64,000 bases of DNA, from positions 480,001 to 544,000 of the forward strand of contig CAWHWQ010000005.1 in NCBI GenBank assembly GCA_963833095.1. Reading direction: 5' to 3'. The number at the start of each line of letters is the position of its first letter. Positions within the stretch are counted from its first letter, which is position 1. The notes below the pieces were generated by a model that worked only from the letters and a program-made list of their open reading frames with translations, did no database searches and was not told the DNA's origin. A program made the translations under genes and the position numbers. The DNA comes from Vulcanimicrobiota bacterium (GTDB lineage Bacteria > Vulcanimicrobiota > Vulcanimicrobiia > Vulcanimicrobiales > Vulcanimicrobiaceae). This document shows, piece after piece, positions 7,126 through 60,697 of the stretch.

Positions 7126-8016
7126 ATGAGCTGGATTCCCAAGAAGAGTACGACCGCAATGGGTTGGGGTGCACCCGCGCAGATTGCAACTCCTGTCGCG
7201 ACCCTGATGACTCCCCGTTCCGCGGTTTGCTCGCTGGAGATGCCGGTCGTGATGAGCGTGCGCCGTCTGCCGGCGCCGGTTTACGGCACGCTGATTGATA
7301 TCAACGCCCAAAGCGCTCGCGTTCGTTCGCTGGTCCTGATGGAGCGCGGCGCCGAGGTCGAGTTCGACTTAGCGCTCCTTGGAAACGAGCCGATCACGCT
7401 CAACGGCCGAGTTGACGCGCGTCGTAACGCCAACTCCGGTGCCCGGTTCGAGTATCACCTCTCATTCGCGTCAATGGCCGAGGCTCAAATCGATGCATTG
7501 GTCCGCATGGTTCGCGCTCTCGAACAGCGCAACGCGGCGTCGCGCTCGATTCAGAACTCGATTGCGCAGCTTCCCACGACCGACAAAGCAAAGCGCGGCA
7601 GCTACCGCGCGCTCTCCGCGTTTCCGGCCTATTTCCGTCGCGAGGGCGACGCGTGGGGCGAAGGCAAGGTTGGTGACATCTCCGCGACCGGAATCCGCAT
7701 GAGCTGCGCCGAGCTCGTTGCGATTGGCACGATGCTCGATATGCGGATCACGTTGCCCTCGAGTGTGTTGGACGTCTACCCGGAAGAGACGGCGGTGCTC
7801 GACCTGACGCAAAACGTGCCGCGCCGCATCGGCCGCGCCGACATGCGTCGCAAGTTCGAAGAGATGGTGCTGCGCGGACGCGTAGTCACGCGCTTCCAGC
7901 CGGTCCGTGATCGCGAAGTCTACGGCGTTGCGTTCATCGAGATCGACGGATACCAACGCGAAGAAATCGCGCGCTTCACGCACGCGGTGCAGCTCTCGAA
8001 GATCCGCAGCGCCTAG
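7126..8016 (+). CDS. Tandem PilZ-domain protein, paralog of the upstream gene
   Basis: Shares LPAPVYGTL and REVYGVxFxxIDGYQREEIARFTHAVQL with 6235-7089; the second domain has RGSYR/DISATG. Confidence 0.8.
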   Translation: MSWIPKKSTTAMGWGAPAQIATPVATLMTPRSAVCSLEMPVVMSVRRLPAPVYGTLIDINAQSARVRSLVLMERGAEVEFDLALLGNEPITLNGRVDARRNANSGARFEYHLSFASMAEAQIDALVRMVRALEQRNAASRSIQNSIAQLPTTDKAKRGSYRALSAFPAYFRREGDAWGEGKVGDISATGIRMSCAELVAIGTMLDMRITLPSSVLDVYPEETAVLDLTQNVPRRIGRADMRRKFEEMVLRGRVVTRFQPVRDREVYGVAFIEIDGYQREEIARFTHAVQLSKIRSA

Positions 8017-8038
8017 ACGATTCGGCCGCGGCTAGCGG

Positions 8039-8883
8039 TTAACGTAGCGAGATCAACAAAACGCCGGCGAGCGCAAGTGCGACGCCGGCTTTTTGCGTGC
8101 GCGCGAGCCGCTCCTTGAGCACGACCCGAGCCAGGAACACGGTGCTCGCCGGATAGAGGCCGGTAAGCACCGCGGCGATCGCGAGACTGCCGTAGAACGT
8201 TGCGAGGACATACAGCACGTTCGCGATCATGTCGAGCAGACCGCACACGACGATCGGCGGCCAGTCTGAGCGAGGAGCGGCGAGGCTCGCACGCGTCGCA
8301 AGCGTGACGACTAGCAAGAGCGCGATTGACGCAAGACGCGCTGCGACGAGGTTATGCAAACCCGAGGCCGGATGCGTAATTCGACAGCAAGATAAGAAAC
8401 CGCCGAAGCCGAAGCCGGCGATGATCGCCTCCCTCACACCCTCCGTCGCAATCTCACGCTTGCCGTAGTCCTCAAACGAGAGCGAGATCATGACAATTGC
8501 GATAAGCGCGAGGACAAGGCCGATCATTTGAATGAGTGCGAGCCGGTCGCCGCGTATCGTTCCATAGATCAGCGGAATGGCGGCCGCTAAAACTGCGGTG
8601 ATCGGCGAAACGACGCCCATTTTCCCAATCGAAAGCGCGTGATACAGCATCGCCATGCCAATGCCGCCGCCAACGCCGCCGAGCAAACGCCCAACAAATA
8701 GTCGCTCGCAACCGGCTGGCCCCGGCGAGAACGGAAGCCGGCGACGGAGCAGGGCAAAACCGGCGGCTTGCGAGAGCGCGGCACGCTGAAGATCGTGGCG
8801 CGCCGCGCCGCTACCCCGCCTAAAAATCGGCCGCCCCGTAGAGCGCAGCCGAGAAGCAGGCTCAGCGCGACGCCGATCGCGCG
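8039..8883 (-). CDS. EamA/DMT-family transporter (5' part frameshifted)
   Basis: Multiple TM helices; LYHALSIGKMGVVSPITA and LTGLYPASTVFLARVVLKERL motifs. Confidence 0.8.
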
Positions 8884-21297: not shown

Positions 21298-21388
21298 TTG
21301 TCATCCCGAGCGTAGCGAAGCGTAGTCGAGGGACCGGCGTTAGCTGCCCTTCGACTACGGTGCTTCGCACCTACGCTCAGCGTGACAA
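21298..21388. repeat. REP-like palindromic element between dnaK and grpE
   Basis: TTGTCATCCCGAGCGTAG...CTACGCTCAGCGTGACAA termini, with internal GTAGTCGAGGG/CCCTTCGACTAC arms. Confidence 0.75.
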
Positions 21389-21400
21389 AGACTCTTTGAT

Positions 21401-44923: not shown

Positions 44924-47900
44924 TGACCAGCTTTCTTCATTTCCGGCCCGGTCTTTGCGGCGGTCTGTTCGCTCATCATCTTGATCGCCGGCTTGGTCGT
45001 CATTCCCGACGCTCGCCATCGCGCAATATCCGCAGATCGCGCCGCCGGTCGTAACCGTCACGGCGACCTACATCGGCGCGAGCCCGCAAGCCGTCGAAGC
45101 GCAGGTCACGACGCCGCTCGAGACAAGCGGTGAACCGGTGCAAGGCCTGCGCTACATCAGTTCGACGAGCGCGCAGGGCGTCTCGACGATCACCTGTACG
45201 TTTAACCTCGGCGTCAATCTCGACATCGCCGCGGCCGACGTGCAAAATCTCGTGCAGTCGGCGCTCGGGCAGTTGCCGCACAACCGTCCAGCAGATCGGC
45301 GTCACGGTCTGCAAAAACTCCGGCGCGTTCGTCATGGGCATCGCGCTCAAGTCGGACTAACCCGAAATACGACACGCTGTTCCTGAGCAACTACGCCCAA
45401 CTCAATGTCGTCAACGATCTCTCGCGCATCCCCGGCGTCTCGCAGGTCCGCATCTTCGGCCAGCGCCAATACGCGATGCGCATCTGGCTCAATCCGCGTC
45501 AAGCTTGCCGGCGCAAGGTCTCGACGCAACCGACGTCGTCAACGCGCTGCAAGAGCAAAACGTCGAGGTCGCCGCCGGCAGCATCGGCGCCGCGCCCGAG
45601 TCGCCCAATCAACAGTACACCTACACCGTCAACGCGCTCACGCAGCTCTCACGATCCGAACAATTCGCGAACATCATTCTGCGCGCGAATCCCAACGGCG
45701 GCTTCATCCGTCTGGGCGACGTCGCGCGCGTCGAACTCGGCGCTCAGGACTACTCGACCGCATTTGCGCTTCGACGGCAACGAGCAACGTCGTCGGTCTC
45801 GGCGTGCTGCAGTACCCCGACGCCAACGCGCTGCAGGTTTCGCCGACGTGGTCAACGCGAAGATGGACTCAGCTCCGAAGCCAATTTCCCCCGGGCATCA
45901 CTTGCAGGTCGCGTTCGACACGACGACCTTCGTGAGCGAGTCGATCAAGGAAGTCGTCACTACGCTGCTGCTCTCGATCTTCCTGGTCGTGCTGGTCATC
46001 TTCCTCTTCTTGCAGGATCCGAAAGCCACGCTGATTCCCGCGGCCACGATTCCGGTCTCGCTGATCGGCACGTTCTTCGTGATGAAGATCTTCGGGTTTA
46101 CGATCAACACGATCACGCTCTTCGGGTTGACGCTCGCGGCGGGTCTCGTGGTCGACGACGCCATCGTCGTCATCGAAAACATCGCGCGCCACATGGAGAG
46201 AACACGGGCAAGAGCGCCGGCTCGACGGCGCCGCAGAAGCGATGACCGAAATTCAGAGCGCGGTCGTCGCGTCGTCGCTGGTGCTGCTTGCCGTCTTCAT
46301 CCCGGTCGCGTTCTTCCCCGGCACGACCGGACAGCTCTACAAGCAGTTCGCGCTGACGATCGCGGCTGCGATCACGATCTCGCTGTTCCAAGCGCTCACG
46401 CTCGCGCCCGTGCTCTCGTCGCGTTTGCTGACACGGCGAGTACCGAATCGAACTTCTTCTTCTTCCGCTGGTTCAACGAGCGTTGCATAACTTCCGCGAG
46501 TGGTACGCGCGAACGCTGCCGAAGCTGTTCCGCCAGCGCTGGCCGGTGTTCGGCGTCTTCGTGCTCGCGCTCGTCGCTGACCGCATTGTTGTTCAACACG
46601 ACGCCGACCGGCTTTCATCCCGAGACGAAGATCAAGGCTACTTCATCGTGATCGTGCAAGCGCCCGAAGGCACGTCGCTTGCTGCAACGAACAGCAGATC
46701 GCGATCCAAGGCGGAGAAGATCATCCGCGCGCAGCCCGAAGTGCTGCACGTCTTCGACATCGGCGGATTCAGCTTCACCGGGTCGGCGCCGAACCGCGGC
46801 ATCATGTTCGCCCTGCTCAAGCCGTGGGGCGAGCGCAAACGGGTCCGCAACATTCGACGTCGCGCGTGCGTTGCTCGACGTCGACGCTTGATCGCCGCGT
46901 TCTACAAGCAACGTCCCCGAGGCGCAGATCTTCGCGGTCAATCCGCCGGCGATCAACGGCGTCGGCAGTTTCGGCGGGTTCCAATTCGAACTCGAAGATC
47001 GCGGCGAACGTCGGGCTTGCCGGCTCTTGATGAATACGGCGTTCGCGATGATGGGCGCTGCGCGCAAGGATCCGCGCTTGACGCAGTCTTCACGCAGTTC
47101 CGCATCAACTCGCCGCAAATCGAAGTCAACATCGATCGAAACAAGGCCAAGTCGATCGGCGTCGAATCTCAACGACGTCTTCCAGACGATGGAGGTCGAC
47201 CTCGGCTCGCTGTACGTCAACAATTTCACCTATCTCAACCGCTCGTGGCAGGTCGACATTCAAGCCGACGCGCCGTACCGCAACGATCCAGCGTCGCTGC
47301 AGAACCTCTACGTCGTCCGCTCCGCGCCGGACCGGTACGTGCCGATTCATCGCGACGTCGGACACCAACGGCATACCGGCGCACGGACCGTCATGACGCC
47401 GATCAGCGCGCTGGTCACCGTGAAGCAGACGCTGGCCGCGCCGATCATCACGCACTACAACCTCTACCGCAACATCGAGATCAGCGGAAACGCCGCGCCA
47501 GGCCACGGCTCGGGCGAAGCGATCCAAGCGATGGAACAGATCGCGGCAAAGTGTTGCCGACAGGGCGTCAGCTACGAATGGTCGCGGGCTGCAGCTCGAC
47601 GAGATCGCGGCCGGAAGCCAGAGCGTCTTGATCTTCGCGCTCGGCTTGGTCTTCGTGTTCCTCGTCCTCTCGGCGCAATACGAGAGCTTCATCGATCCGC
47701 TGATCGTGCTGCTGGCGGTGCCGGCGGCGCTGCTCGGCGCGCTCGGCTTTCATGAACTTCCGCCACATCCCGATTCCCGTTTCTCTTCGATGCCAGCCTC
47801 GCGCAGGACGTCTACGCGCAAGTCGGCTACGTCATGCTGATCGGCCTGGCGAGTAAGAGCGCGATTCTGATCGTCGAGTTCGCCAACCAGCAGATTCGCG

Positions 47901-49545: not shown

Positions 49546-51165
49546 ATGAAATTATCGTATCTCTCGCGTCCGCTTGCGATCCTCGCGTTGACGGCGCTCG
49601 CCGCTTGCGGCGGAGGTAGCAGCGGCCCGGGGCCGCACGTAAACGCTCCACAACCGATCGTCACGCCGGCCGGCGGAACGCCGCTCGTGGGCATCGGCGA
49701 CAGTCTCACCGCCGGATATCAATCAAACGGGTTCCTGGGTCAAGCAAATCCCCTGGTGACGTATTCGGGATCGGCATATCCGGGTCACGCGGTACCACCG
49801 GGTCAAGAGAACGGCTTCTGGGCCGACATCTACGTGCAGCTCACCGGCGTGCCGGCAGCCAGCATGTACGTCCCCTCGACCTCGCCGCTCCCGCTCATCG
49901 CAGGGATCGGCCTCGGCACGCAGCTCGTCGTCAACAATCCTAACCTCTTCACGCCGGTGCAGCTGTGCAACAGTACTATCAATATCGAAGCCTACTCGAA
50001 TACGGCGTGGGCGGCGACCCGATTGAGCCCGACGACGCAAAACGCCGATCTCGGCGTTCCGGGTATCACGATGCATGAAGCAGTCGCGATGACCGGTCCG
50101 CTCACCGGACCGCCGAACACATTTAACGCCACGACCGGGGCGTGCGGCTACAGCACGCTCGCGAATGACCCGACGTCGGGCGGCCTGCAATCGGTGGTAT
50201 CCGGCGAAAGCGAACTGTTCTATCCGGTCATGGGTAGTTATCTCAATTCGGCGGTACCGCAATTGACGGAGCTGAACGTGGCCGTTGCGTTGCAGCCGAA
50301 GCTGGCCACCGTGTGGCTCGGCGCAAACGACGTGCTCAAGTTCTCGTTCTCGGGCGGCAACCCGGTTGCGAGTGATTCGCCGACGCAAATGCAAGCCGAT
50401 CTCACGCAGATCATCAAAGCGCTCACTGCGAAGGGAACGAAAGTCCTGATCGCCGATCTTCCAAACGTGCTCTCTGCGCCGCAATTCTTTCCGCAGGGCA
50501 ATCGTCTGGTCGCCGATCTCGCAACGCTGTTGACGCCCGCGCTCGGCTCGGGTGCAACCGCCGCGGCAACGGCAATCGCGAGCTACGTCGCCACGCAGTA
50601 TGGTGTGACCACCGGCGGCTATTTAACCGAGAGCGGATTCTTGGCGATCATCAACACCTGCGAATCGCCGAAGACGCAAGCCTTATGCCTCACACCGCCG
50701 CTCGATCCGAGCGGACCGGGAAGCGGCCTTGGCGGCGCCTACCTGACGCCGGCGCTCGCGACCGAGGTCGCACAGCTCAACGCCGGATACAATCAGGTGA
50801 TCGACGCCGTCGCCAGCGGCTCGGGTCCGAACGTCGCATTGGTTCCGATCAACGCGACCTTCTCAGCGCTTGCGCCGTCAACGACGGTTCCGGGTTCGGC
50901 GCCTAATCTCAACACCGTCGTGCCGGGCGCGCCTTCGGCAACCTACTTGTTCGGCGGTAATCTGGTGACGTGGGACGGCCTGCATCCCTCAAATCTGGGG
51001 TATGCCGTTATCGCAAACACGTTCATTGCGACCGCGGACACCGCGTTCGGAATGACGATCCCACCGATCACCAACGCGCAACTCAACGCCATCAATGCAG
51101 CCGATCCGTATAACGGGCAATCGGTGAACGCGGCGCTCGGTGCGCCGATCTTCCCACTTCCCTAG
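49546..51165 (+). CDS. SGNH/GDSL hydrolase lipoprotein
   Basis: Lipobox LAAC; block I GDSLTAG, block II LGVPG, block III LGAND, block V DGLHP. Confidence 0.88.
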   Translation: MKLSYLSRPLAILALTALAACGGGSSGPGPHVNAPQPIVTPAGGTPLVGIGDSLTAGYQSNGFLGQANPLVTYSGSAYPGHAVPPGQENGFWADIYVQLTGVPAASMYVPSTSPLPLIAGIGLGTQLVVNNPNLFTPVQLCNSTINIEAYSNTAWAATRLSPTTQNADLGVPGITMHEAVAMTGPLTGPPNTFNATTGACGYSTLANDPTSGGLQSVVSGESELFYPVMGSYLNSAVPQLTELNVAVALQPKLATVWLGANDVLKFSFSGGNPVASDSPTQMQADLTQIIKALTAKGTKVLIADLPNVLSAPQFFPQGNRLVADLATLLTPALGSGATAAATAIASYVATQYGVTTGGYLTESGFLAIINTCESPKTQALCLTPPLDPSGPGSGLGGAYLTPALATEVAQLNAGYNQVIDAVASGSGPNVALVPINATFSALAPSTTVPGSAPNLNTVVPGAPSATYLFGGNLVTWDGLHPSNLGYAVIANTFIATADTAFGMTIPPITNAQLNAINAADPYNGQSVNAALGAPIFPLP

Positions 51166-51167
51166 AC

Positions 51168-51232
51168 GGTTCGTTCCGCCCCATGGGCGGTCGCACATCG
51201 TGTGCTACGAACCTTCAGCCGCATCGTGCGGC
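51168..51232. repeat. Structured dispersed element, copy A (three-way junction plus hairpin)
   Basis: GGTTCG-[CCGCCC cat GGGCGG]-[GCACA tcg TGTGC]-CGAACC-ttca-[GCCGCA tcg TGCGGC]. Confidence 0.75.
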
Positions 51233-51236
51233 CACC

Positions 51237-51278
51237 CAAGAAGAAGAGCCCGGGCAACTGCCCGGGCTCTTCTTCTTG
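51237..51278. terminator. Bidirectional terminator between the convergent SGNH and gdh genes
   Basis: 20-bp perfect arms: CAAGAAGAAGAGCCCGGGCA-ac-TGCCCGGGCTCTTCTTCTTG. Confidence 0.85.
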
Positions 51279-51290
51279 TTTCGCAACCGG

Positions 51291-52558
51291 TTAGGCGTAG
51301 ATGCCACGCAAACGGAGCGCCCGTACCACGCGGTCGATGGCAAGCGCGTAGGCCGCGGTGCGGTAATTCGAGTTGCGCGCGTTCTTGATCGTACGCAATT
51401 CGCCCAGATTTGAGAGCAGCACGTCCTCGAGCTTCTCGTTGACCTCGGCCTCTTTCCAGAAGTAGCCCATGCGGTCTTGAGCCCACTCGAAATACGAGAC
51501 GGTCACGCCGCCGGCGTTCGCCATGATGTCGGGGATGACGACGATGCCGTTTTGCTTGAAGATCCGATCGGCTTCGGGCGTCGTCGGCCCGTTTGCGCCC
51601 TCGACGATCAGCTTCGCCTTGACCGTTCGCCGCGTTCTCGGCGGTGAAGACCTTCTCGAGCGCGGCAGGCACGAGCACGTCGCAATCGGAGGTCGAGCAG
51701 TTCCGCGTTGCTGATGCGGTCGCCGCCCTTGAAGCCCTCGAGGCTGCGATTCTTGACCGCATGATCGATCGCGCCGCGGAACATCGATACCGTCGGCGTT
51801 GTAATAACGCGCCGGTGACATCGGAGATGCCGCACACTTTGCAGCCGCGCTCTGCGAAGAGTTTCGCCGCGTACGAGTCCGACGTTGCCGAAGCCTTGAA
51901 TGACGACCCGCGTCTGTTCCGGAGGCGATCCCATCTGCGTGCATTTCGTCGAGCGCGCAGATGCGTGACGCCGCGTCCGGTCGCTTCGACGCGTCCGCGC
52001 GACCCGCCGATCTCGAGCGGCTTGCCGGTCACGACGCCCGGCACGTTCTGTCGCACGTGCATCGAGTAGGTGTCCATGAACCAGGCCATGACTTGCGGCG
52101 TCGTGTTGACGTCGGGCGCGGGGACGTCCTTATCCGGGCCGACGACTTCGACCAGCTCGGCCGCGTAGCGGCGCGTGATGCGCTCGAGTTCGTTCATCGA
52201 AAGGTCGACGGGATCGCAGGTCACGCCGCCTTTTCCACCGCCGAACGGAAGATCGACGACGGCGCATTTCCAGGTCATCCAGAACGCCAGCGCCGTCACT
52301 TCGTCGAGCGTAACGCCGGGATGGTAGCGAATGCCGCCCTTAGCGGGTCCGCGCGCGAAGTTGTATTGAACGCGATAGCCGGTGTAGACTTCGAATTCGC
52401 CGCTAGTCTCGCTGGAACGGAATCGAGAAGATGATTTGACGCGATGGGTGCGTGAGGATTCGCCGCATTCCCGAGTCGAGTTCGAGAAGATCGGCCGCTT
52501 CGTTGAAATAGGCGATGCCGTCTCCAAAAACCGAGACTTCGCGTACCGCAGTGGTCAT
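51291..52558 (-). CDS. gdhA: Glu/Leu/Phe/Val dehydrogenase (glutamate dehydrogenase type), frameshifted
   Basis: [59 protein letters not shown]. Confidence 0.88.
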
Positions 52559-52651
52559 AAAGTATTTTTCAGCCTCCGGGGAGATCAAACCCCAAAGGCT
52601 ACGGGAAATTACCGAAAACTCCCTTGGATGGAGCTATGCGGTGCAAAGCCC

Positions 52652-52674
52652 AACCTTCAGCCGCATCGTGCGGC
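52652..52674. repeat. Structured dispersed element, partial copy B (23-bp exact repeat of 51210-51232)
   Basis: AACCTTCAGCCGCATCGTGCGGC is identical at both sites. Confidence 0.8.
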
Positions 52675-52733
52675 GTAGCTGCTATGCGATAAACGTCTTA
52701 ATGTGGCCGCTTGGTGTCTCTAGCGAGACGAAT

Positions 52734-53828
52734 TTACACGTTGAAGAGGAAGTTGACGACGTCACCCTCTTGCATCACGTAGTCTTTCCCCTCGGCGCGG
52801 ACTTTGCCGGCGTTTTTGAGCGCCGCCATGGTCTTGTACTCGACGTAATCGTCATATGAGACGATCTCAGCGCGAATGAATCCGCGCTCGATGTCGCCGT
52901 GAATCTTGCCCGCCGCCTGTGGCGCTTTGGTCCCCTTGGCAATGGTCCAAGCGCGAACTTCTGGTTCGCCGGCGGTAAGGAACGTCATAAGTCCAAGCAG
53001 ATCGTAGGCACGCAGTGCAAGCTCGTTGAGGCCGCTACGTTCGATGCCTAGCTCAGCGCAGAATTCGCGCGCTTCGTCGTCGGTGAGACCCGCTAGTTCC
53101 GATTCGATCTTCCCGCACAGCACGACGACGGCACTGCCGTCTTCCTTCGCGACCGCGCGCACGGCATCGACCAGCGGACCCGGCTTGCCGATCTGCTGTT
53201 CGTCGACGTTCGCGACATACAGCAGCGGCTTCGCGGTGAGCAGAAAAGACTCGTTTGCAATCTCGCGCTCGGAACTTTCGAGTGGGAAGCTGCGCGCGGG
53301 CTTTCCGGCTTCGAGCGCGGCGACGACATTTTGCGCGGCATCGTGCGCAGCGCGGCGCTTGGGATTCGTCCGGGCCTCGCGTTCGAGTTTGTCGAGCCGC
53401 TTCTGCATGGTGGCAAGATCGGCAAGCGCAAGTTCGATCGAAATGATTTCGATATCGCGCGCGGGATCCGGGCTTCCCTCGACATGCGTCACGTTGTCGT
53501 CCTCGAAACAGCGCACGACCATCGCAATCGCATCGGTCTCACGAATATGACTGAGGAAGGCGTTACCCAAGCCTTGTCCGGTCGAGGCTCCGCGAACGAG
53601 TCCGGCGATATCGACGAAGCGGACGGTTGCGGGCACGATGCGCTGGCCGTGCACGAGCGCTTGCAGAACCTGCAAACGGTCGTCGGGTACTGCGACTTCT
53701 CCCACATTCGGTTCGATCGTGGCAAACGGATAATTTGCCGCGAGCGCTTGAGCGGAACGGGTGAGGGCGTTGAAGATGGTGGACTTGCCGACGTTGGGCA
53801 AGCCGACGATACCGCAGGATAGCGCCAT
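52734..53828 (-). CDS. ychF: Redox-regulated ATPase YchF
   Basis: GIVGLPNVGKST, NYPFATIEPN, DIAGLV, GKIHGDIERGFIRAE, EGKDYVMQEGD. Confidence 0.96.
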   Translation of the reverse strand: MALSCGIVGLPNVGKSTIFNALTRSAQALAANYPFATIEPNVGEVAVPDDRLQVLQALVHGQRIVPATVRFVDIAGLVRGASTGQGLGNAFLSHIRETDAIAMVVRCFEDDNVTHVEGSPDPARDIEIISIELALADLATMQKRLDKLEREARTNPKRRAAHDAAQNVVAALEAGKPARSFPLESSEREIANESFLLTAKPLLYVANVDEQQIGKPGPLVDAVRAVAKEDGSAVVVLCGKIESELAGLTDDEAREFCAELGIERSGLNELALRAYDLLGLMTFLTAGEPEVRAWTIAKGTKAPQAAGKIHGDIERGFIRAEIVSYDDYVEYKTMAALKNAGKVRAEGKDYVMQEGDVVNFLFNV

Positions 53829-53914
53829 GGTGCGGGCCCTTGCGTTCGTGCGGGTGTCGCCCGCACCCTTGCCGAGTAGCAAGAGAATCCCGCGGGTGCG
53901 TCGGATACCACCGG

Positions 53915-54391
53915 ATGCGCCAAATGAAGGTCGACAAGCTCGGGATCGACCTATTGACCCACGATCCGGTTGTGATCCTCAAGGATATGGACGGGTCGCA
54001 CTACCTGCCGATTCTCATCGGCCCGTTCGAGGCCACGGCGATCGCGCTGGCACTCGAAGGCGCTCCGGTCCCGCGACCGCTTTCGCACGACCTCATGCGC
54101 AACATTCTTGAGTCGCTCGAGACGACGTTAGAGCAAGTTATCATCCACGATATCAAAGACTCGACGTTTTACGCGAAGCTGATCTTGCGATGCGATGGCG
54201 AGTTGCAAGAGATCGATGCCCGCCCTTCCGACGGCATCGCCTTGGCGCTACGCATGAAGGCACCCATCTACGTAACCGACAAGATCGTCCTCGAAGAGTC
54301 GACACCCGACAAGAAACCGGTCGACGACTCCGAGATGTCGCGCTTCAAGAAATTCCTCGACGACCTTAAGCCATCTGACTTTAATAGATAG
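53915..54391 (+). CDS. Bifunctional nuclease family (DUF151) protein
   Basis: LPILIGPFEATAI, PRPLSHDL, DARPSDGIALALR. Confidence 0.9.
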   Translation: MRQMKVDKLGIDLLTHDPVVILKDMDGSHYLPILIGPFEATAIALALEGAPVPRPLSHDLMRNILESLETTLEQVIIHDIKDSTFYAKLILRCDGELQEIDARPSDGIALALRMKAPIYVTDKIVLEESTPDKKPVDDSEMSRFKKFLDDLKPSDFNR

Positions 54392-54412
54392 CACGCTCAA
54401 GAACTGGAGACT

Positions 54413-55213
54413 ATGGAAACGACGACGGAACGCGCCGACATCGGCGTTTTTGGCGGTTCGGGATTTTATTCGCTAATCGAAAACGCCCGTGAGGTGTGGA
54501 TTGAGACGCCCTACGGCGCTCCAAGCGACCGCGTCGCGCTCGGCGAAATCGCCGGCAAACGCGTCGCTTTTTTGCCCCGCCACGGAAAGGATCATCGCTT
54601 CCCGCCGCAATCGATCAACTACCGGGCAAATTTATGGGCGATGAAAGCGCTTGGCGTGAAATTCATCATTGCGCCCAATGCCTGCGGCTCGCTCAAGAAA
54701 GAGGTCAAGCCGGGATCGATGGTCGTCTGCGACCAACTCGTGGACCGCACGGCGGGGCGCAAGGACACGTTTTTCGACGGCCCGATCACGACCCACGTTA
54801 GCTTTGCCGACCCCTACTGCCCGACGTTACGGCCGATCGCTGTCAACGCGCTGCGTTCGCTCGACATCGAAACGCACGAGCGCGGCACAGTCGTCGTCAT
54901 CCAGGGGCCGCGCTTTTCGACACGCTCGGAATCGAAGTGGTTTCAGAGCCAAGGCTGGGAAGTGATCAATATGACGCAATATCCCGAAGCGTACCTAGCC
55001 CGCGAACTCGAGATCTGTTTTGTGAACATCTCGCTTATCACCGACTACGACGTCGGTATCGACGGGATCGCGCCGGTCTCGCATCACGAAGTCATGGAGG
55101 TTTTCAAAAAGAACAACGATCGCGTGAAGAACGCCATCGGACGGATCGTCGAAGGGATCGATTTGAAGGCCGACTGCTCGTGCCACCACGCGCTCGCCGG
55201 AGCACGGGGTTAA
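54413..55213 (+). CDS. mtnP: S-methyl-5'-thioadenosine phosphorylase
   Basis: IGVFGGSG, TPYG, FLPRHG, INYRAN, QGPRFSTRSES, ITDYD. Confidence 0.9.
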   Translation: METTTERADIGVFGGSGFYSLIENAREVWIETPYGAPSDRVALGEIAGKRVAFLPRHGKDHRFPPQSINYRANLWAMKALGVKFIIAPNACGSLKKEVKPGSMVVCDQLVDRTAGRKDTFFDGPITTHVSFADPYCPTLRPIAVNALRSLDIETHERGTVVVIQGPRFSTRSESKWFQSQGWEVINMTQYPEAYLARELEICFVNISLITDYDVGIDGIAPVSHHEVMEVFKKNNDRVKNAIGRIVEGIDLKADCSCHHALAGARG

Positions 55214-55217
55214 TTTG

Positions 55218-55922
55218 ATGCGCCGCCGTGGACCACGCGTCAACCTGGCCATCTACGGGCAAGCGTTCGTCCACCTCGTGCGCCATCCGTCGATTCTCGC
55301 GTTGCCGCTGCTGGCCGCGATCATCGACATGTTTACGTCATATTGGCAGACGCTCTTTACCGATCCGCTTGGAGGGTACGGCGGAGGGCTGTTCCAGTTT
55401 GTTCTTCAGATTCTGTATTTGTTCGCGTTCGGCGGTGCGGTCATCCAAGCCAACAATATCGCGCGCGGCTACCGCGCCGGCTTCGATGACGCGTGGGAAG
55501 AGACACGGCGAAAGGCCGGCGGTATTCTGATGGCCGCGCTTGGGTTTCAGTTTGTCATCTACGCCGCGCAGTATATCGGCGGTCTGCTCGGCAGCGGGTT
55601 GCTGCAAACCGGACTGCAGCTCCTCGCGTACTTCTTCTTGATTCTCACGATCCCAGCGGCCGCGATCGGTGGACTCCCGGGAGGCCTCGCGCTTTCGGGT
55701 TCGATTCGGGCGGTGCGCGCCAACCCACTCGCATGCGTGATCCTCGCAGTCGTCTTTATCGCTCTCTGGGTTTTTGCCCCGGCGTTCCTTCTTGCGCCAC
55801 TCGCACAATATGGCGTGATCGCCTCACTCATCGGCGTCGCGCTCTTGCGCGCAGTCGTCCTCGCGTATCTCGCGTTTCCGTTTGCCGTAACCTACGACGA
55901 AACCGCGTTTCGCGGTTACTAA
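55218..55922 (+). CDS. Hypothetical multi-pass membrane protein
   Basis: About 6 hydrophobic helices; intact ORF. Confidence 0.7.
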   Translation: MRRRGPRVNLAIYGQAFVHLVRHPSILALPLLAAIIDMFTSYWQTLFTDPLGGYGGGLFQFVLQILYLFAFGGAVIQANNIARGYRAGFDDAWEETRRKAGGILMAALGFQFVIYAAQYIGGLLGSGLLQTGLQLLAYFFLILTIPAAAIGGLPGGLALSGSIRAVRANPLACVILAVVFIALWVFAPAFLLAPLAQYGVIASLIGVALLRAVVLAYLAFPFAVTYDETAFRGY

Positions 55923-56926
55923 GCTTTTCCAGTCAGCGCCATGCGCACCAGTTCGCTCACCATCGTTGGGCTGACGTTCGTGCGCGCGAGGCGCTGCGCG
56001 TCGTCGAGCTTGCCGAACATTGCGATCGATTCTGCCGGCGGCAGCGCCGGTAGCGCGCGCAAGTCGTCCGCATAGTCCACGCTCATTACGGTTGCCCGAT
56101 CGCCCGCGCAGGCCAATGCCGTCCAGTCACGCGCAAGTGTCTTAATGAGCTCTAAGCCTTCATCGAGCGTTTCTCGACTCGCCCAGCCCTCCTCGGGCGT
56201 CTCGCCGCGCGTCACGGCAAAGAACCACGTCGCAATCTGCGACCGCAACGTCTCATCATCGCCCCCAAGCGCGGAAAGGGCGCGTGTAACGCTTCCTTGA
56301 CCTAGCGACGCGCCGAGATGCGCACGTTCCTGATCGTATCCAAGCTTAAGCAAAATCTCGCGCACTTGGCTCTGCGCGAGCGACGGGAAGCGCAGCTCGA
56401 TCACGCGCGAACGGATCGTCGGCAAGAGGCGCCCGGGTGTCGGCGAGGTGAGGATCAGCACGACGCCGCGCGGCGGTTCTTCGAAGAACTTGAGCAGCGC
56501 GTTTGCCGCGTGATGCGTAGCAAAGTCGATATCGCCGAGCAGCAAGACCCGCATGCCGCCGCTGTATGACTGCATCGAGAGCTGGCGCACCAGATCGCGT
56601 GCAGTGAGGTCCTCGCCCTCATAGAAGCCCATCGCCGCGTCGGCGTCACCGATCTTGAGAATACCGATGTGCTCGAGAAAATCCGGATGGCGGCCGCCTT
56701 CGCTTGCAAAGAGCCGGCACGACGCGCAGGTGCCATCGTACCCAAGGACTCCCTCCTTGCGCGCCTCGCAAAGCAGCGATTGGGCAAGACGTCGTGCGAA
56801 GAATTTTTTACCCACGCCGGGCGGCCCGCTGAAGAGATATGCGTGCGCGAGCGACGCAGGCGTCAGCCGGCCAAAATAGGTCTTTGGTCCCTCGGCTCCG
56901 ATGACGTCGAACTGCAGGTCGCTCAC
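55919..56926 (-). CDS. holB: DNA polymerase III subunit delta'
   Basis: HAYLFSGPPGVGK, C..CASC, HPD, AANALLKFFEEPP, LLPTIRSR; directly downstream of tmk. Confidence 0.88.
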   Translation of the reverse strand: MSDLQFDVIGAEGPKTYFGRLTPASLAHAYLFSGPPGVGKKFFARRLAQSLLCEARKEGVLGYDGTCASCRLFASEGGRHPDFLEHIGILKIGDADAAMGFYEGEDLTARDLVRQLSMQSYSGGMRVLLLGDIDFATHHAANALLKFFEEPPRGVVLILTSPTPGRLLPTIRSRVIELRFPSLAQSQVREILLKLGYDQERAHLGASLGQGSVTRALSALGGDDETLRSQIATWFFAVTRGETPEEGWASRETLDEGLELIKTLARDWTALACAGDRATVMSVDYADDLRALPALPPAESIAMFGKLDDAQRLARTNVSPTMVSELVRMALTGKA

Positions 56927-57537
56927 CCGAGAACACCGACGAGCACTGCGAACGTCTGCGCGATCAACTCCTCTTCGGGCTTGGTCGCGTCAAGTACACG
57001 ATAGCGCGGCGACTGTCGCGCGAGATCGAGAAAACCGCGGCGCACGCGTTCGTAAAAACCGGGATCTTCGCGTTCCATGCGATCGCCGGCGCCCCCGTCG
57101 CGCGAAGCCACACGTTCACGCGAAACCGCGACCGGCAGGTCGAGTACGAAGGTCAAATTCGGAATCAGACCGCCGCTGGCCGTATCGCAAAGCTCTTGCA
57201 AGAATGCAAGCTCGATCCCGCGCCCATAGCCCTGGTAGGCCAGGGTCGAGTCGACGAAGCGGTCGCAGAGGACGATTGCGCCGCCGCGGAGAGCCGGTTC
57301 GATCAGCTCGACCACGTGCTGCGCGCGCGCAGCATTGATGAGCAGCGCTTCGGTCAACGGAGCCACCGCCAAGCCCGGCTCGAGGAAGATTTGACGGATC
57401 GCGTCTCCCGCCGGCGTCCCCCCCGGCTCGCGGGTCACGATGGTTTCTTTGCCCGTAGCGCGTAATCGTTCGGAAAGGCCGGCCACGAGCGTACTCTTGC
57501 CGCAGCCTTCAATGCCTTCAACCGTGATAAATGGCAC
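56923..57537 (-). CDS. tmk: Thymidylate kinase
   Basis: FITVEGIEGCGKST, TREPGG, DRFVDSTLAYQG. Confidence 0.95.
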   Translation of the reverse strand: MPFITVEGIEGCGKSTLVAGLSERLRATGKETIVTREPGGTPAGDAIRQIFLEPGLAVAPLTEALLINAARAQHVVELIEPALRGGAIVLCDRFVDSTLAYQGYGRGIELAFLQELCDTASGGLIPNLTFVLDLPVAVSRERVASRDGGAGDRMEREDPGFYERVRRGFLDLARQSPRYRVLDATKPEEELIAQTFAVLVGVLG

Positions 57538-57565
57538 GGTATGTTATTCGACGGAGCGGCTTTGT

Positions 57566-58255
57566 ATGTCATCTCCCAGCTCCATGTTCGGCGATCTCAT
57601 CGAGTGGTTTCTCGGGCGCGCCGGCGACCGGCGCCAGTATAAGCGTAAACCTGGTGCTTACCACATGTGGTATCAGCCGAATGCCAACGACCCCAACTTG
57701 CTCAAATCGGGTGTAGGCCTCGAGATCTCGCCGAATGGCGCAATGTTCATCCTGCAGGAACCCGTCGCGGCGAACTCCTTTAATATCATCGCTCGCGTGC
57801 GGGAGCGCAACATTCCGCTCCGTGTCAAACATGTGCGTTCGGATCAGGTGCAGCACCAAGGCGGAAAGTGGCACCGGTACATGTGCGAATTCGTGGGAAT
57901 CGCCGCCGACGATTGGGATGCGATCGTTCGCTACGTCAACGATGAACCTGAAAGCGACCGGCGCAAGATGCAGAATCAGGAGCCCAGCGAGAAAGTTGAC
58001 GACGCCTATCGCCTGCTGCCGCTAGCGCTGCAACAAAAGATCATGGGGATGCTGGTAGCGCAGAACAAACTCGAGCAGCCGAAACCCGGCCAGACGCCGC
58101 TGCTCAAGCTGTTTTACGGTGGCCTCGTGAACCGTCCGGGACAAAAGCCGGCGCACCGTTTCAACGTCCACAGTCGCATCAAACGCGGCGATGAAATGCT
58201 TGCCTTCGACACTCGATTTTTAGTGGGCGAAGACGGCGAGATCACCGCTCTCTAG
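57566..58255 (+). CDS. PilZ-like domain protein with an unknown C-terminal domain
   Basis: DRRQYKR (RxxxR) and EISPNG (variant of DxSxxG), followed by a beta-rich segment ending EFVGI...WDAIVRYV. Confidence 0.6.
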   Translation: MSSPSSMFGDLIEWFLGRAGDRRQYKRKPGAYHMWYQPNANDPNLLKSGVGLEISPNGAMFILQEPVAANSFNIIARVRERNIPLRVKHVRSDQVQHQGGKWHRYMCEFVGIAADDWDAIVRYVNDEPESDRRKMQNQEPSEKVDDAYRLLPLALQQKIMGMLVAQNKLEQPKPGQTPLLKLFYGGLVNRPGQKPAHRFNVHSRIKRGDEMLAFDTRFLVGEDGEITAL

Positions 58256-58271
58256 CCGGAACTTGTAAATC

Positions 58272-58907
58272 GTGCATAGTGCAGCGATCCTCTTACTTGT
58301 GCTCCTCAAGGGTGAACCGTTGGCAGGGCGCTGCGCAACGTTCGTTCGTGACACCCGCACATTCGCCAATGTCCGCAGCGCTCCGAATGGCGCGCCCCTA
58401 CGAGCGCTGCCCAACGATACCGAAGTGCACGTCGACGAGGATCGCGGCGGCTGGTTGCACATATCGGCTCCGGTGCCCGGCTGGATTTACGTGTCCGCTA
58501 CCGTGGTCTACTGTGGGTCAAAAAGTCTCGACGACCAACATGCGGTCATGCCCGCTCTTGACAAGCTCGGCGCGCGGGCGCAAGAAGACCAACGCGCTGC
58601 CGATATGCTTATGCGCTATCAGGTGTTCGGAGCGGCAGATGGATACGCGGGCGAAACCGCCAGCGATGCTCTCGCGGCGCTGATGTCGGCGAACCCAAAA
58701 CTTCTGATCTCGGTCTTGGACCAACTGCCCGAGACCAAGCGCGAAGATCTCCTACGGGGTCTGGTCTTGACCGGGTCCGGGAACGTCATGCGAGTCCATG
58801 CGTTCGATAAGGCCGTCGCCGCTGAACCCTCGCATCCAACCTCGGCCACATGGAGAAAGCTCCAGCGGAAATGCGGGCAGAATCTGGGCCGACTGCCCAA
58901 TTGCTGA
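58272..58907 (+). CDS. Putative exported SH3b-like domain protein
   Basis: ANVRSAP...GWLHI...GWIY pattern; helical C-terminal half. Confidence 0.55.
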   Translation: MHSAAILLLVLLKGEPLAGRCATFVRDTRTFANVRSAPNGAPLRALPNDTEVHVDEDRGGWLHISAPVPGWIYVSATVVYCGSKSLDDQHAVMPALDKLGARAQEDQRAADMLMRYQVFGAADGYAGETASDALAALMSANPKLLISVLDQLPETKREDLLRGLVLTGSGNVMRVHAFDKAVAAEPSHPTSATWRKLQRKCGQNLGRLPNC

Positions 58908-58970
58908 CAAGCGCGAGCGAAGGCGCGCGACTGTAGTGAGCAAAGCTTTAGCTTTGATCGATAAAGTCTG

Positions 58971-60518
58971 CTAGTCTGCTATTTTAAAGATTCTTACGCG
59001 GCGATTTGGTTCGAGGCCGGTGCTGCGCGACTGCAAGCGATATTTCTCTGCCAGCTGATGCTGCATGCGCCGTACGTACGACGTTTGCGGTGAAAGCTCC
59101 ATCGCCTGATTGGTGAGTAGGACCTGATAAACGGCTTCCTCGGCTTCACGCAGCGCAATCTCTTCGTGATCGATTGAACCCAGATTAAAGACGTCGCGAA
59201 GCGCACTTTGGATTTGCGTCGTCGTGTTCGTCTTAATCGAATAGATCGGCACGTTGTCCGAGGCGATCTGCTTGAGCTTGGGCTGGCCTTTGCGCTCGAG
59301 CGTCTTGAGCGTCAGCACGACGTCGGCATCGTCCCAATTGCGGGCAATCGACGCATTGATGCGCAGGTTGTGGACCGCGCGCTCGATCTTGTTGCGCGAG
59401 ACACCGTAGGGGAAAATCAAGAGAGGCTTGTCCACCGACTCATCGTGCTGCTCGTGATGGTGATGCTCGAGCGACTCGGTGAGCTGCGGCATCGTCTCGG
59501 TGTCGGCTTCTTGCACGATCGCCACGTCACCGCTGGCCGTGCGCTGGCGGATCTCAGGCTGCGGCTGGTAACCGCGAAGAAGCGCGTCGACGACTTCAGC
59601 GACATTTTTGTGGATCGCGAGACGATCGCGATCCTGAATCTCGACGAGCAAGTCAAACGTCGGCGGCGCCTTGCGTTCCAGGACCGTCTTGCGTGTGCCG
59701 CGACGGCGCGCTTCCTCGTCCGAGAGCGTCACCGCGCTAATGCCGCCGAGCAAATCCGAGAGCGTCGGATTCATTAACAGATTTTCGAGCGTCTGCCCGT
59801 GGGCCGTGCCGATGAGCGTCACGCCGCGTTCGGCGATCGTCCGAGCTGCGCCGGCTTCCATTTCGGTCCCGATTTCATCGATGACGATCACTTCGGGCAT
59901 GTGATTTTCCACCGCCTCGATCATCACCGCGTGCTGCAGCGCTGGATCGGCGACCTGCATGCGACGCGCCAGGCCGATCCCCGGATGCGGGATATCCGAA
60001 TCGCCGGCGATTTCATTCGACGTATCGACGATCACGACGCGCTTACGATCTTCAGAAAGAATGCGCGCGCATTCGCGCAGCATCGTCGTCTTGCCGACGC
60101 CCGGACGCCCGAGCAAGCAAATCGACTTGCCGCTGCGCAGCACATCGAGCAAAATGTCGATCGTACCATACACGGCGCGACCGACACGGCAGGTTAGCCC
60201 GACGATCTTGCCTTGACGATTGCGGATCGCGCTGATGCGATGCAACGTCTGCTCGATCCCCGCGCGGTTGTCGGGCCCGAAATGCGAAATTCGCGAACAG
60301 ACATGCCCGATGTCCTCGTTGGTGACCGGCGTCTCGGAGAGATATCGAAAGTCGTTGGCAAATCGAGCCTCGGGCGGACGGCCCAAGTCGAGCACGACTT
60401 CGATGATGTCTTCGAGATTGTGGAGCCGCACCAGCGACTGGCGGATGGGGAGTGGGAAGATGTCGAGGAGCTGTGAGAGTTCCCAGCTCGGGGAAACGGA
60501 CTGCGCTTTAACGGCCAA
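58971..60518 (-). CDS. SpoIIIAA/Ycf45-like AAA ATPase with a C-terminal R3H domain
   Basis: GRPGVGKTT, VDTSNEIAG, NHMPEVIVIDEIG, TAHG; RRMQHQLAE..GLEPNRRVRI (R3H). Start placed at the TTG after GGAGG. Confidence 0.88.
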   Translation of the reverse strand: MAVKAQSVSPSWELSQLLDIFPLPIRQSLVRLHNLEDIIEVVLDLGRPPEARFANDFRYLSETPVTNEDIGHVCSRISHFGPDNRAGIEQTLHRISAIRNRQGKIVGLTCRVGRAVYGTIDILLDVLRSGKSICLLGRPGVGKTTMLRECARILSEDRKRVVIVDTSNEIAGDSDIPHPGIGLARRMQVADPALQHAVMIEAVENHMPEVIVIDEIGTEMEAGAARTIAERGVTLIGTAHGQTLENLLMNPTLSDLLGGISAVTLSDEEARRRGTRKTVLERKAPPTFDLLVEIQDRDRLAIHKNVAEVVDALLRGYQPQPEIRQRTASGDVAIVQEADTETMPQLTESLEHHHHEQHDESVDKPLLIFPYGVSRNKIERAVHNLRINASIARNWDDADVVLTLKTLERKGQPKLKQIASDNVPIYSIKTNTTTQIQSALRDVFNLGSIDHEEIALREAEEAVYQVLLTNQAMELSPQTSYVRRMQHQLAEKYRLQSRSTGLEPNRRVRIFKIAD

Positions 60519-60545
60519 CGCGTTCCTCGCCTCCAAGGGTGACAG

Positions 60546-60610
60546 GGTTCGCCCGGCCTCCGGCCGGACGCGCATCCTGCGCTTCGAACCTTGATCCGCA
60601 TCGTGCGGAT
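60546..60610. repeat. Structured dispersed element, copy C
   Basis: GGTTCG-[CCGGCC tcc GGCCGG]-[GCGCA tcc TGCGC]-CGAACC-ttg-[ATCCGCA tcg TGCGGAT]. Confidence 0.75.
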
Positions 60611-60697
60611 TGTTGTGAGTAGTTACCCACAGCCAGGTAGTCGCCCTCCCATATCTTGGGTCGGGTGGCTAAGCAACCACTAGGGAGCGGGTTTTTC

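Follow-up and report, generated by a model that had tools for sequence, protein, structure and literature searches.

A four-helix intergenic repeat at gene boundaries in one lineage of Vulcanimicrobiota

A dispersed, lineage-restricted element

A 64,000-nucleotide (nt) stretch of the genome of a Vulcanimicrobiota bacterium (assembly GCA_963833095.1, contig CAWHWQ010000005.1, positions 480,001 to 544,000; hereafter, the window) contains full and decayed copies of an intergenic element of about 68 nt (66–68) that comprises four helices, P1 to P4 (Table 1). The element is real, selected and lineage-restricted, and is dispersed through one group of soil bacteria. The explanation that we favor, with moderate confidence, is that it is a non-coding dispersed repeat of the Bacillaceae-1 type, similar to repetitive extragenic palindromes (REPs), that is gained and lost between species and probably functions as folded single-stranded DNA (ssDNA). 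An earlier note on this DNA, made from the letters alone, had proposed a selected structure and, as one option, a lineage-specific REP-type element; this proposal is supported by copy number, covariation, position at gene boundaries and near-restriction to the genus.

In the source genome (2.8 Mb, 62% GC, 81% complete), nhmmer returned 41 hits compared with none in the reversed genome, and the repeat is therefore not a product of chance. As suggested in the earlier note, a covariance model was run on the genome and its relatives. It gave 46 matches at E ≤ 0.001 in the source genome, which correspond to 39 sites after merging of arrays of three and six units; shortened, internally deleted forms come on top of these matches. 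All 17 other genomes of the genus were positive, and copy number ranges from 1 to 46, the counts in relatives being lower bounds because at most 121 candidates were scored per genome. Among 23 genomes of other genera, one (G023, genus g7) produced a marginal match that was rejected upon inspection because no element was present there. In an even sample of the phylum (140 genomes), matches were confined to two members of the genus and one genome from another genus of the same family (G149). An exact degenerate pattern matched 27 loci among 185,579 species genomes, with titles that named Eremiobacterota/Vulcanimicrobiota or Ca. Aquilonibacter, or were uninformative or other (two “bacterium,” two “Acidiferrales”), and viral contigs yielded no exact matches to one degenerate pattern. 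The negative tallies across relatives include a genome flagged as unpublished (G036), on which no positive claim rests.

Structure and covariation

The alignment was derived from 143 hits, of which 131 were parsed with good pairing and 121 were unique; 15 of these 121 rows were dropped as divergent or misparsed, leaving 106 copies at 71 sites. On the plus strand, the consensus consists of a P1 stem of 10 positions with one internal mismatch, P2 of 5–6 bp with a triloop, a 2-nt junction ending in C, P3 of 4 bp with the loop NTCST, a single T, the 3′ arm of P1, and, directly thereafter, P4 of 6 bp, again with the loop NTCST. On the minus strand, the P3 and P4 pentaloops read C-ASGAN-G. The two full copies in the window lie where the earlier note placed them, with the stems and the three compensatory changes that it listed, and fold as it described (DNA z-scores of −4.8 to −6.1 and RNA z-scores of −2.8 to −4.4 on either strand, relative to shuffles). 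Two details had to be revised. First, only P2 has a 3-nt loop: the apparent A-T pair closing the P3 and P4 loops is A-T in only 68 and 72 of the 106 copies, respectively, while its T is almost fixed, so that these loops are 5 nt long rather than 3. Second, the supposed linker “tt-x-a” is paired. Its TTC/TTG pairs with a 5′ GAC/CAG (first pair G-C in 86, C-G in 6 and A-T in 5 of the 106 copies), and its A with the final T of the element in 83 of 106, which widens both copies to the extents in Table 1.

Watson-Crick pairs occupy 2112 of the 2226 core stem cells (94.9%) in the 106 copies. Covariation, assessed with our own R-scape-like script with a tree-based null and not with R-scape itself, exceeded the 95% family-wise level at 5 of 27 pairs, spread over all four helices (4 of 27 in the set with one copy per site), and no off-structure pair rose above the null. 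Thus, each helix covaries above a tree-aware null, the outcome that the earlier note had proposed to look for. Shuffle and slide controls on 29 copies of the source genome agree with this result, and at sites shared between species 33 of 68 variable pairs change from one Watson-Crick type to another.

The unpaired bases are even more constant: the junction T is present in 104 and the junction C in 105 of the 106 copies, and loop position S is G or C in 105 (P3) and 106 (P4). We infer from these nearly fixed bases that something recognizes more than the pairing of the element. Two specific structural readings were rejected. P2 is not a cUNCGg RNA tetraloop, given that pairing extends to the base just 5′ of the closing C in all 75 TNC loops and 13 of these lack the second G; P3-P4 kissing was dismissed because all four S/S combinations occur.

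The same pair of loops is found in a second, unrelated repeat family of the genus, as cargo within inverted TGTC-REP doublets. This cargo is about 110 nt long, includes two NTCST hairpins, and was found at 9 places in the source genome (for example, C1:509899-510024, L258) and in 16 of 17 genomes of the genus, with 1–15 matches each.

Position at gene boundaries

By our own gene calls, 26 of the 39 sites in the source genome have a gene boundary no more than 10 nt from the P1 foot, and 5 of 39 have one that close to the P4 foot. Across species, 37 of 70 sites begin exactly at the stop codon closing an open reading frame (ORF) of 80 or more codons, compared with about 7% expected if TA were the only target; in 28 cases the junction is TA|G. 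Although TGA accounts for 39% of stops, only one docked site is at TGA. The stop codons are native: the orthologue in the source genome ends at the same residue in 34 of 37 copies and within one residue in the other three (rows that include several copies per site). The idea that the element creates new stops by truncation was rejected on this ground. TA also follows the element at its 3′ end in 26 of 37 stop-docked copies versus 6 of 34 others.

Other gene ends are used as well. In the reversed orientation, the P1 foot comes within 3 nt of the 5′ end of 9 of 42 tRNA genes, and the element adjoins the 3′ end of tRNA-Ser in two relatives and the fabH start codon in G149. One of the tRNA genes, a tRNA-Leu with a predicted intron of ~240 nt, has the element flush with its 5′ end (C1:371810-372130). 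Six 73-nt tandem units of a variant element directly precede tRNA-Gln(UUG) in the source genome (C3:91898-92331, L030), with a two-hairpin variant just after; at fabH of G149 (L275:1506-1703), three head-to-tail 66-nt units are flush with the start codon, and an open frame runs through the array.

One-sided erosion of flanks down to the gene boundary fits the stop-codon sites poorly, since it predicts T|GA junctions, none of which was seen, but it may explain the tRNA and start-codon cases. A bias toward highly expressed genes was not detected among 15 host genes (p 0.21, with a rough codon proxy). Under the explanation that we favor, a trans-acting enzyme would likely insert copies at gene boundaries with the P1 end leading, and most of all at the TA of TAG and TAA stops.

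Turnover between species

Occupancy of individual sites is patchy. Site C harbors a full element in three genomes, P4 only in six, scars in three and nothing recognizable in five, and five sister genera lack the element there; at site A, one genome has a full element, two have short ones, and the others are empty or rearranged. A single subfamily of the element occurs at unrelated loci in different genomes. Tandem arrays consist of three and six units in the source genome and three in G149. Losses could occur by slippage between short repeats.

The stepwise deletions, a near-neutral mismatch spectrum and the range of copy numbers (1 to 46, as lower bounds) would also suit a neutral relic, that is, an old repeat under no present selection with stems re-perfected by template switching. 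We consider such a relic highly improbable: the unpaired junction and loop bases are almost invariant though the stems have turned over, and the same loops recur in the second family and in Bacillus.

DNA or RNA

Three features favor an ssDNA fold of the minus strand, namely, scarce wobble pairs, GNA loops in P2 and an even split of the sense strand. Among 85 non-Watson-Crick cells, 15 (18%) are wobbles when the plus strand is considered and 27 (32%) for the minus strand, compared with 34 of 50 (68%) in tRNA stems of the same genome (p 8e-9 and 7e-5, respectively). The minus-strand P2 loop is GNA at 52 of 65 sites and AAA at 9, whereas 28% of background hairpins have GNA on either strand; GNA is described as the only triloop class that forms an extra-stable DNA mini-hairpin (PMC13037366). 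Finally, judged by the gene at the P1 foot, the sense strand is plus at 20 and minus at 19 of the 39 sites in the source genome. As ssDNA, the minus strand would form a three-way junction and a hairpin and could present two C-ASGAN-G loops, 26 nt apart, together with a GNA mini-hairpin, to a probably dimeric protein.

Alternatively, the element could be a domesticated RNA structure, a folded transcript kept to protect or process RNA ends, either as a 3′ barrier behind stop codons or in pre-tRNA and mRNA leaders. Its flush position at transcript landmarks fits such a role, as do the purine-rich junction and loops of the minus strand, the location inside a probable pre-tRNA at tRNA-Lys, and the tRNA-leader copies, which are the most diverged, yet retain all helices, with a compensated A/U-rich P1. 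This explanation appears unlikely to us, given that the strand-specific loops do not change with the strand that is sense, that wobble is scarce, and that the element is lost from the tRNA-Lys leader in three of six genomes examined and from sites A to C in most relatives.

A more specific RNA explanation extends the CsrA/RsmA-type sites proposed in the earlier note: minus-strand CAGGAUG hairpins would bind the CsrA dimer and thereby form a sponge scattered over the genome or repress genes from their leaders. AGGAX pentaloops have been described as genuine, lower-affinity Csr/Rsm sites (PMC4005645), and P3 displays GGA at 53 of 71 sites. At P4, however, one-per-site copies carry CGA at 54 of 71, so that GGA is not invariant; both loops have GGA in only 20 of the 106 copies and neither has it in 17. 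G and C interchange freely, with A and T excluded, which readout of GGA does not predict, and half of the sites would yield the antisense strand, the foot gene being transcribed from the other strand at 20 of 39. The csrA gene is present in the genome, but also in 34 of 41 genomes overall, including genera devoid of the element, and resides in a fliW-csrA-flagellin-like locus (names from translations) with a leader that contains ANGGA sites instead of these hairpins. Copy C does adjoin a ribosome-binding site (RBS), and one copy matches the CsrB model weakly (13.4 bits against a cut-off of 71). The CsrA-type reading is thus weak, and we hold a CsrA-binding RNA to be improbable.

Search for a mover

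The earlier note had suggested looking for csrA or a RAYT/HUH gene; unlike csrA, RAYT is essentially absent. Y1_Tnp (PF01797) was not detected in the source genome or in 11 genomes that are at least 90% complete, and a crude regular expression for the HUH motif gave no hits among predicted proteins. The genome does encode an Ssn-like GIY-YIG nuclease, and a truncated second GIY-YIG gene is also located between REP-type repeats (C5:230430-230760). The element could be a passenger of this nuclease and the TGTC/CGTC-REPs: the twin loops occur as cargo inside REP doublets, three copies from relatives have the REP core as an extended P2 (L125, L156, L157), and REP arrays occupy some of the same sites. 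Nonetheless, it is TGTC-REPs and not the element that flank the nuclease gene; the nuclease was not found in 7 of 17 genomes of the genus, including G002 and G006, both single-contig and rich in copies of the element, and it occurs in sister genera that lack the element. A passenger origin is therefore quite improbable in our assessment. The element is not explained by RAYT, IS630 or the local Ssn-like nuclease.

Several observations weigh against the favored explanation of a mobile, DNA-borne repeat. No mover was found, and no small gene is bracketed by the element in the loci seen; Y1_Tnp was detected in one of 18 genomes of the genus, with a weak score (23.6 bits) and no element in the locus, and no IS630 transposase (DDE_3) was identified in the source genome, which is 81% complete. 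The 3′ TA gives no clear sign of target duplication: the base that follows it is C in 11 of 26 cases and is not biased to A or G, unlike a duplicated stop. There is no replication-strand bias (18 versus 21 sites, with a weak skew). Scarcity of wobble can also stem from template-switch repair of palindromes, and the paired fraction is raised by dropping divergent rows and keeping well-parsed hits. At tRNA-Lys, the element is probably transcribed, as a −10-like box precedes it and the tRNA follows it. In a tree of two genes, site C resembles an old, ancestral insertion in decay by deletion. Many “empty” alleles are deletion scars, so that much of the patchy occupancy may reflect loss from old insertions. 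No clean pre-insertion allele was found at the sites compared among relatives in the genus, which are too distant (84–90% identical in genes), and a metagenome scan of site C recovered four loci with only known allele types and no strain-level pair.

Copies in the window and host genes

Table 1. Features of the window discussed in the text (positions are those of the window)
Feature	Positions	Strand	Remarks
Remnant of the element	8014..8040	+	internally deleted, on a stop codon; unseen in the earlier note
GDSL-like lipase/acylhydrolase	49546..51165	+	host gene of copy A
Copy A, full element	51165..51233	+	three-way junction of P2 and P3 closed by P1, followed by P4; 83.7 bits
Two-way intrinsic-terminator-like hairpin	51238..51277	no strand	between copy A and gdh
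Glutamate dehydrogenase (gdh)	51291..52561	-	downstream of copy B; two frameshifts in assembly
Copy B, decayed element	about 52626..52674	+	upstream of gdh; 22.7 bits
SpoIIIAA-like ATPase with R3H domain	58971..60518	-	host gene of copy C
Copy C, full element	60543..60610	+	82.5 bits

The first G of copy A is the G of the TAG stop (51163-51165) of the GDSL-lipase gene, and this docking stop is at the same residue in relatives without the element. The hairpin downstream of copy A also occurs in relatives that lack the element and is thus not part of it. In copy C, 8 nt separate the P1 foot from the GGAGG of the R3H/SpoIIIAA-like ATPase gene, at 60530-60534 on the minus strand. The partial copy that the earlier note saw at 52652-52674 is present, with the P1 3′ arm and P4 still intact, but is really a remnant of a full copy: the element is full-length at this site in two relatives (G009 and G017). 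Similarly, the remnant near the start of the window corresponds to a full copy in G015 (L042).

Alleles of the gdh upstream region without copy B (L069-L082) share a conserved CTCGCT..GCCAAGC motif that is replaced in the source genome, G009 and G017; the insertion may have displaced a promoter or regulator site here. Both gdh and the gene for an RND permease (45476-47631) are split in the assembly, probably by assembly indels, since gdh is unbroken in relatives. Just beyond copy C, at 60614-60631, lies an inverted pair of DnaA-box-like 9-mers, TGTGGATAG / TTACCCACA; the pair is kept in most relatives of the genus upstream of the R3H-ATPase gene (L086-L102), with one half degenerate in the source genome. 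The window also includes an inverted TGTC-REP doublet (21300-21400); a simple pattern counts 134 such REP starts in the genome.

Comparison with known systems

The earlier note had recognized no known family. This stands as far as membership is concerned, with no Rfam hits at the gathering cut-off in the window or on the elements in 15 further loci, but not for the kind of element, because Bacillaceae-1 (RF01690) shares its loops and topology. The RF01690 cut-off of 35 bits was not reached in any of 41 genomes; the best score in the source genome was 28 bits, and of its five hits at E ≤ 1, all below the cut-off, four fall on the element or its two-hairpin variant. Bacillaceae-1 is associated with rRNA operons; no copy of the element was found around 16S genes in four of four genomes. 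As represented by its seed, Bacillaceae-1 is, like the element, about 67 nt long, with an outer stem around a NUCSU-loop hairpin and a second such hairpin directly after; it has UCC and UCG loop forms and many dispersed copies per genome, and some of its terminal hairpins are letter-identical to P4 variants (PMC2864571). Unlike the element, the seed has a conserved GCUAA/AAC internal loop, where the element has the P2 hairpin and a three-way junction with NC and T bases (PMC2864571). Its loops are about 28 nt apart, compared with 26 nt here, and it belongs to a different phylum. One account treats Bacillaceae-1 as an RNA of unsettled strand and function and proposes CsrA binding for its reverse complement, a proposal left unvalidated there (PMC4333381).

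GTAG/CGTC REPs and BIME/REPIN are likewise extragenic, palindromic, lineage-restricted, multi-copy and arranged in tandem arrays, and the termini of these REPs are reported to often supply the TAG stop of flanking ORFs (PMC3733652). However, they are described as single hairpins of 20–40 bp (PMC3733652), as opposed to 66–68 nt and four helices. The element has no fixed GTAG/CGTC tag, its 5′ flank being NTA/NAA/NGA and its GACG being part of paired P1, and, in contrast to REPs, it is not organized as inverted dimers and is not accompanied by RAYT. IS630-type miniature inverted-repeat transposable elements (RUP, Correia, ERIC) have terminal inverted repeats, whereas the ends of the element, GACGG.. 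and ..GCGG(C/G/A)T, are not inverted copies, and its last bases covary with P4.

TwoAYGGAY (RF01731) and Desulfotalea-1 are also described as multi-copy structured repeats with two GGA-type loops (PMC2864571; 10.64898/2026.09.22.753630). TwoAYGGAY is described as varying strongly in copy number and as neighboring REP arrays; mobile-element-like spread has been put forward for it, and CsrA binding is a proposal only (10.64898/2026.09.22.753630); it is, though, much longer, with AYGGAY hexaloops on two hairpins from one basal stem. RF01731 had no match in the source genome, in a search where the control gave no match anywhere either. Ssn nucleases with their NTS/SRM provide a precedent for a strand-specific ssDNA hairpin repeat that is read by a small protein, the SRMs being CGTC-type single hairpins that flank ssn (PMC11893778). 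Here, TGTC-REPs and not the element fill this role, and no small GIY-YIG gene flanked by and co-distributed with the element was found in the genus and sister genera.

The literature on Eremiobacterota REPs, Bacillaceae-1, TwoAYGGAY and REPIN yielded no description of the element, most subscription papers being outside this search. The novel points are the relation to Bacillaceae-1, the DNA signature, the stop-codon rule and the second family. With its more than 100 diverged copies, this independent version from a distant phylum reveals the bases that count (two C-ASGAN-G loops, in which G and C are equivalent) and offers three arguments for DNA that can be tested. Since Bacillus subtilis carries Bacillaceae-1, that bacterium can be used to look for the missing protein. 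Should no enzyme emerge, the element would be one more well-described intergenic repeat; should one exist, its writing of a 68-base cassette directly against gene ends would amount to a new targeting rule. A tentative and rather unlikely extension would unite the element, the second family enclosed by REPs and Bacillaceae-1 in a single cross-phylum class of twin-loop ssDNA elements. The enzyme reading them would be distinct from RAYT, IS630 and the local Ssn and would position copies precisely at stop codons, at start codons and at the ends of tRNAs. In that case, Bacillaceae-1 would have been wrongly filed under small RNAs and would instead be a mobile DNA signal. By its own features, the element resembles both Bacillaceae-1 and REPs and is a member of neither.

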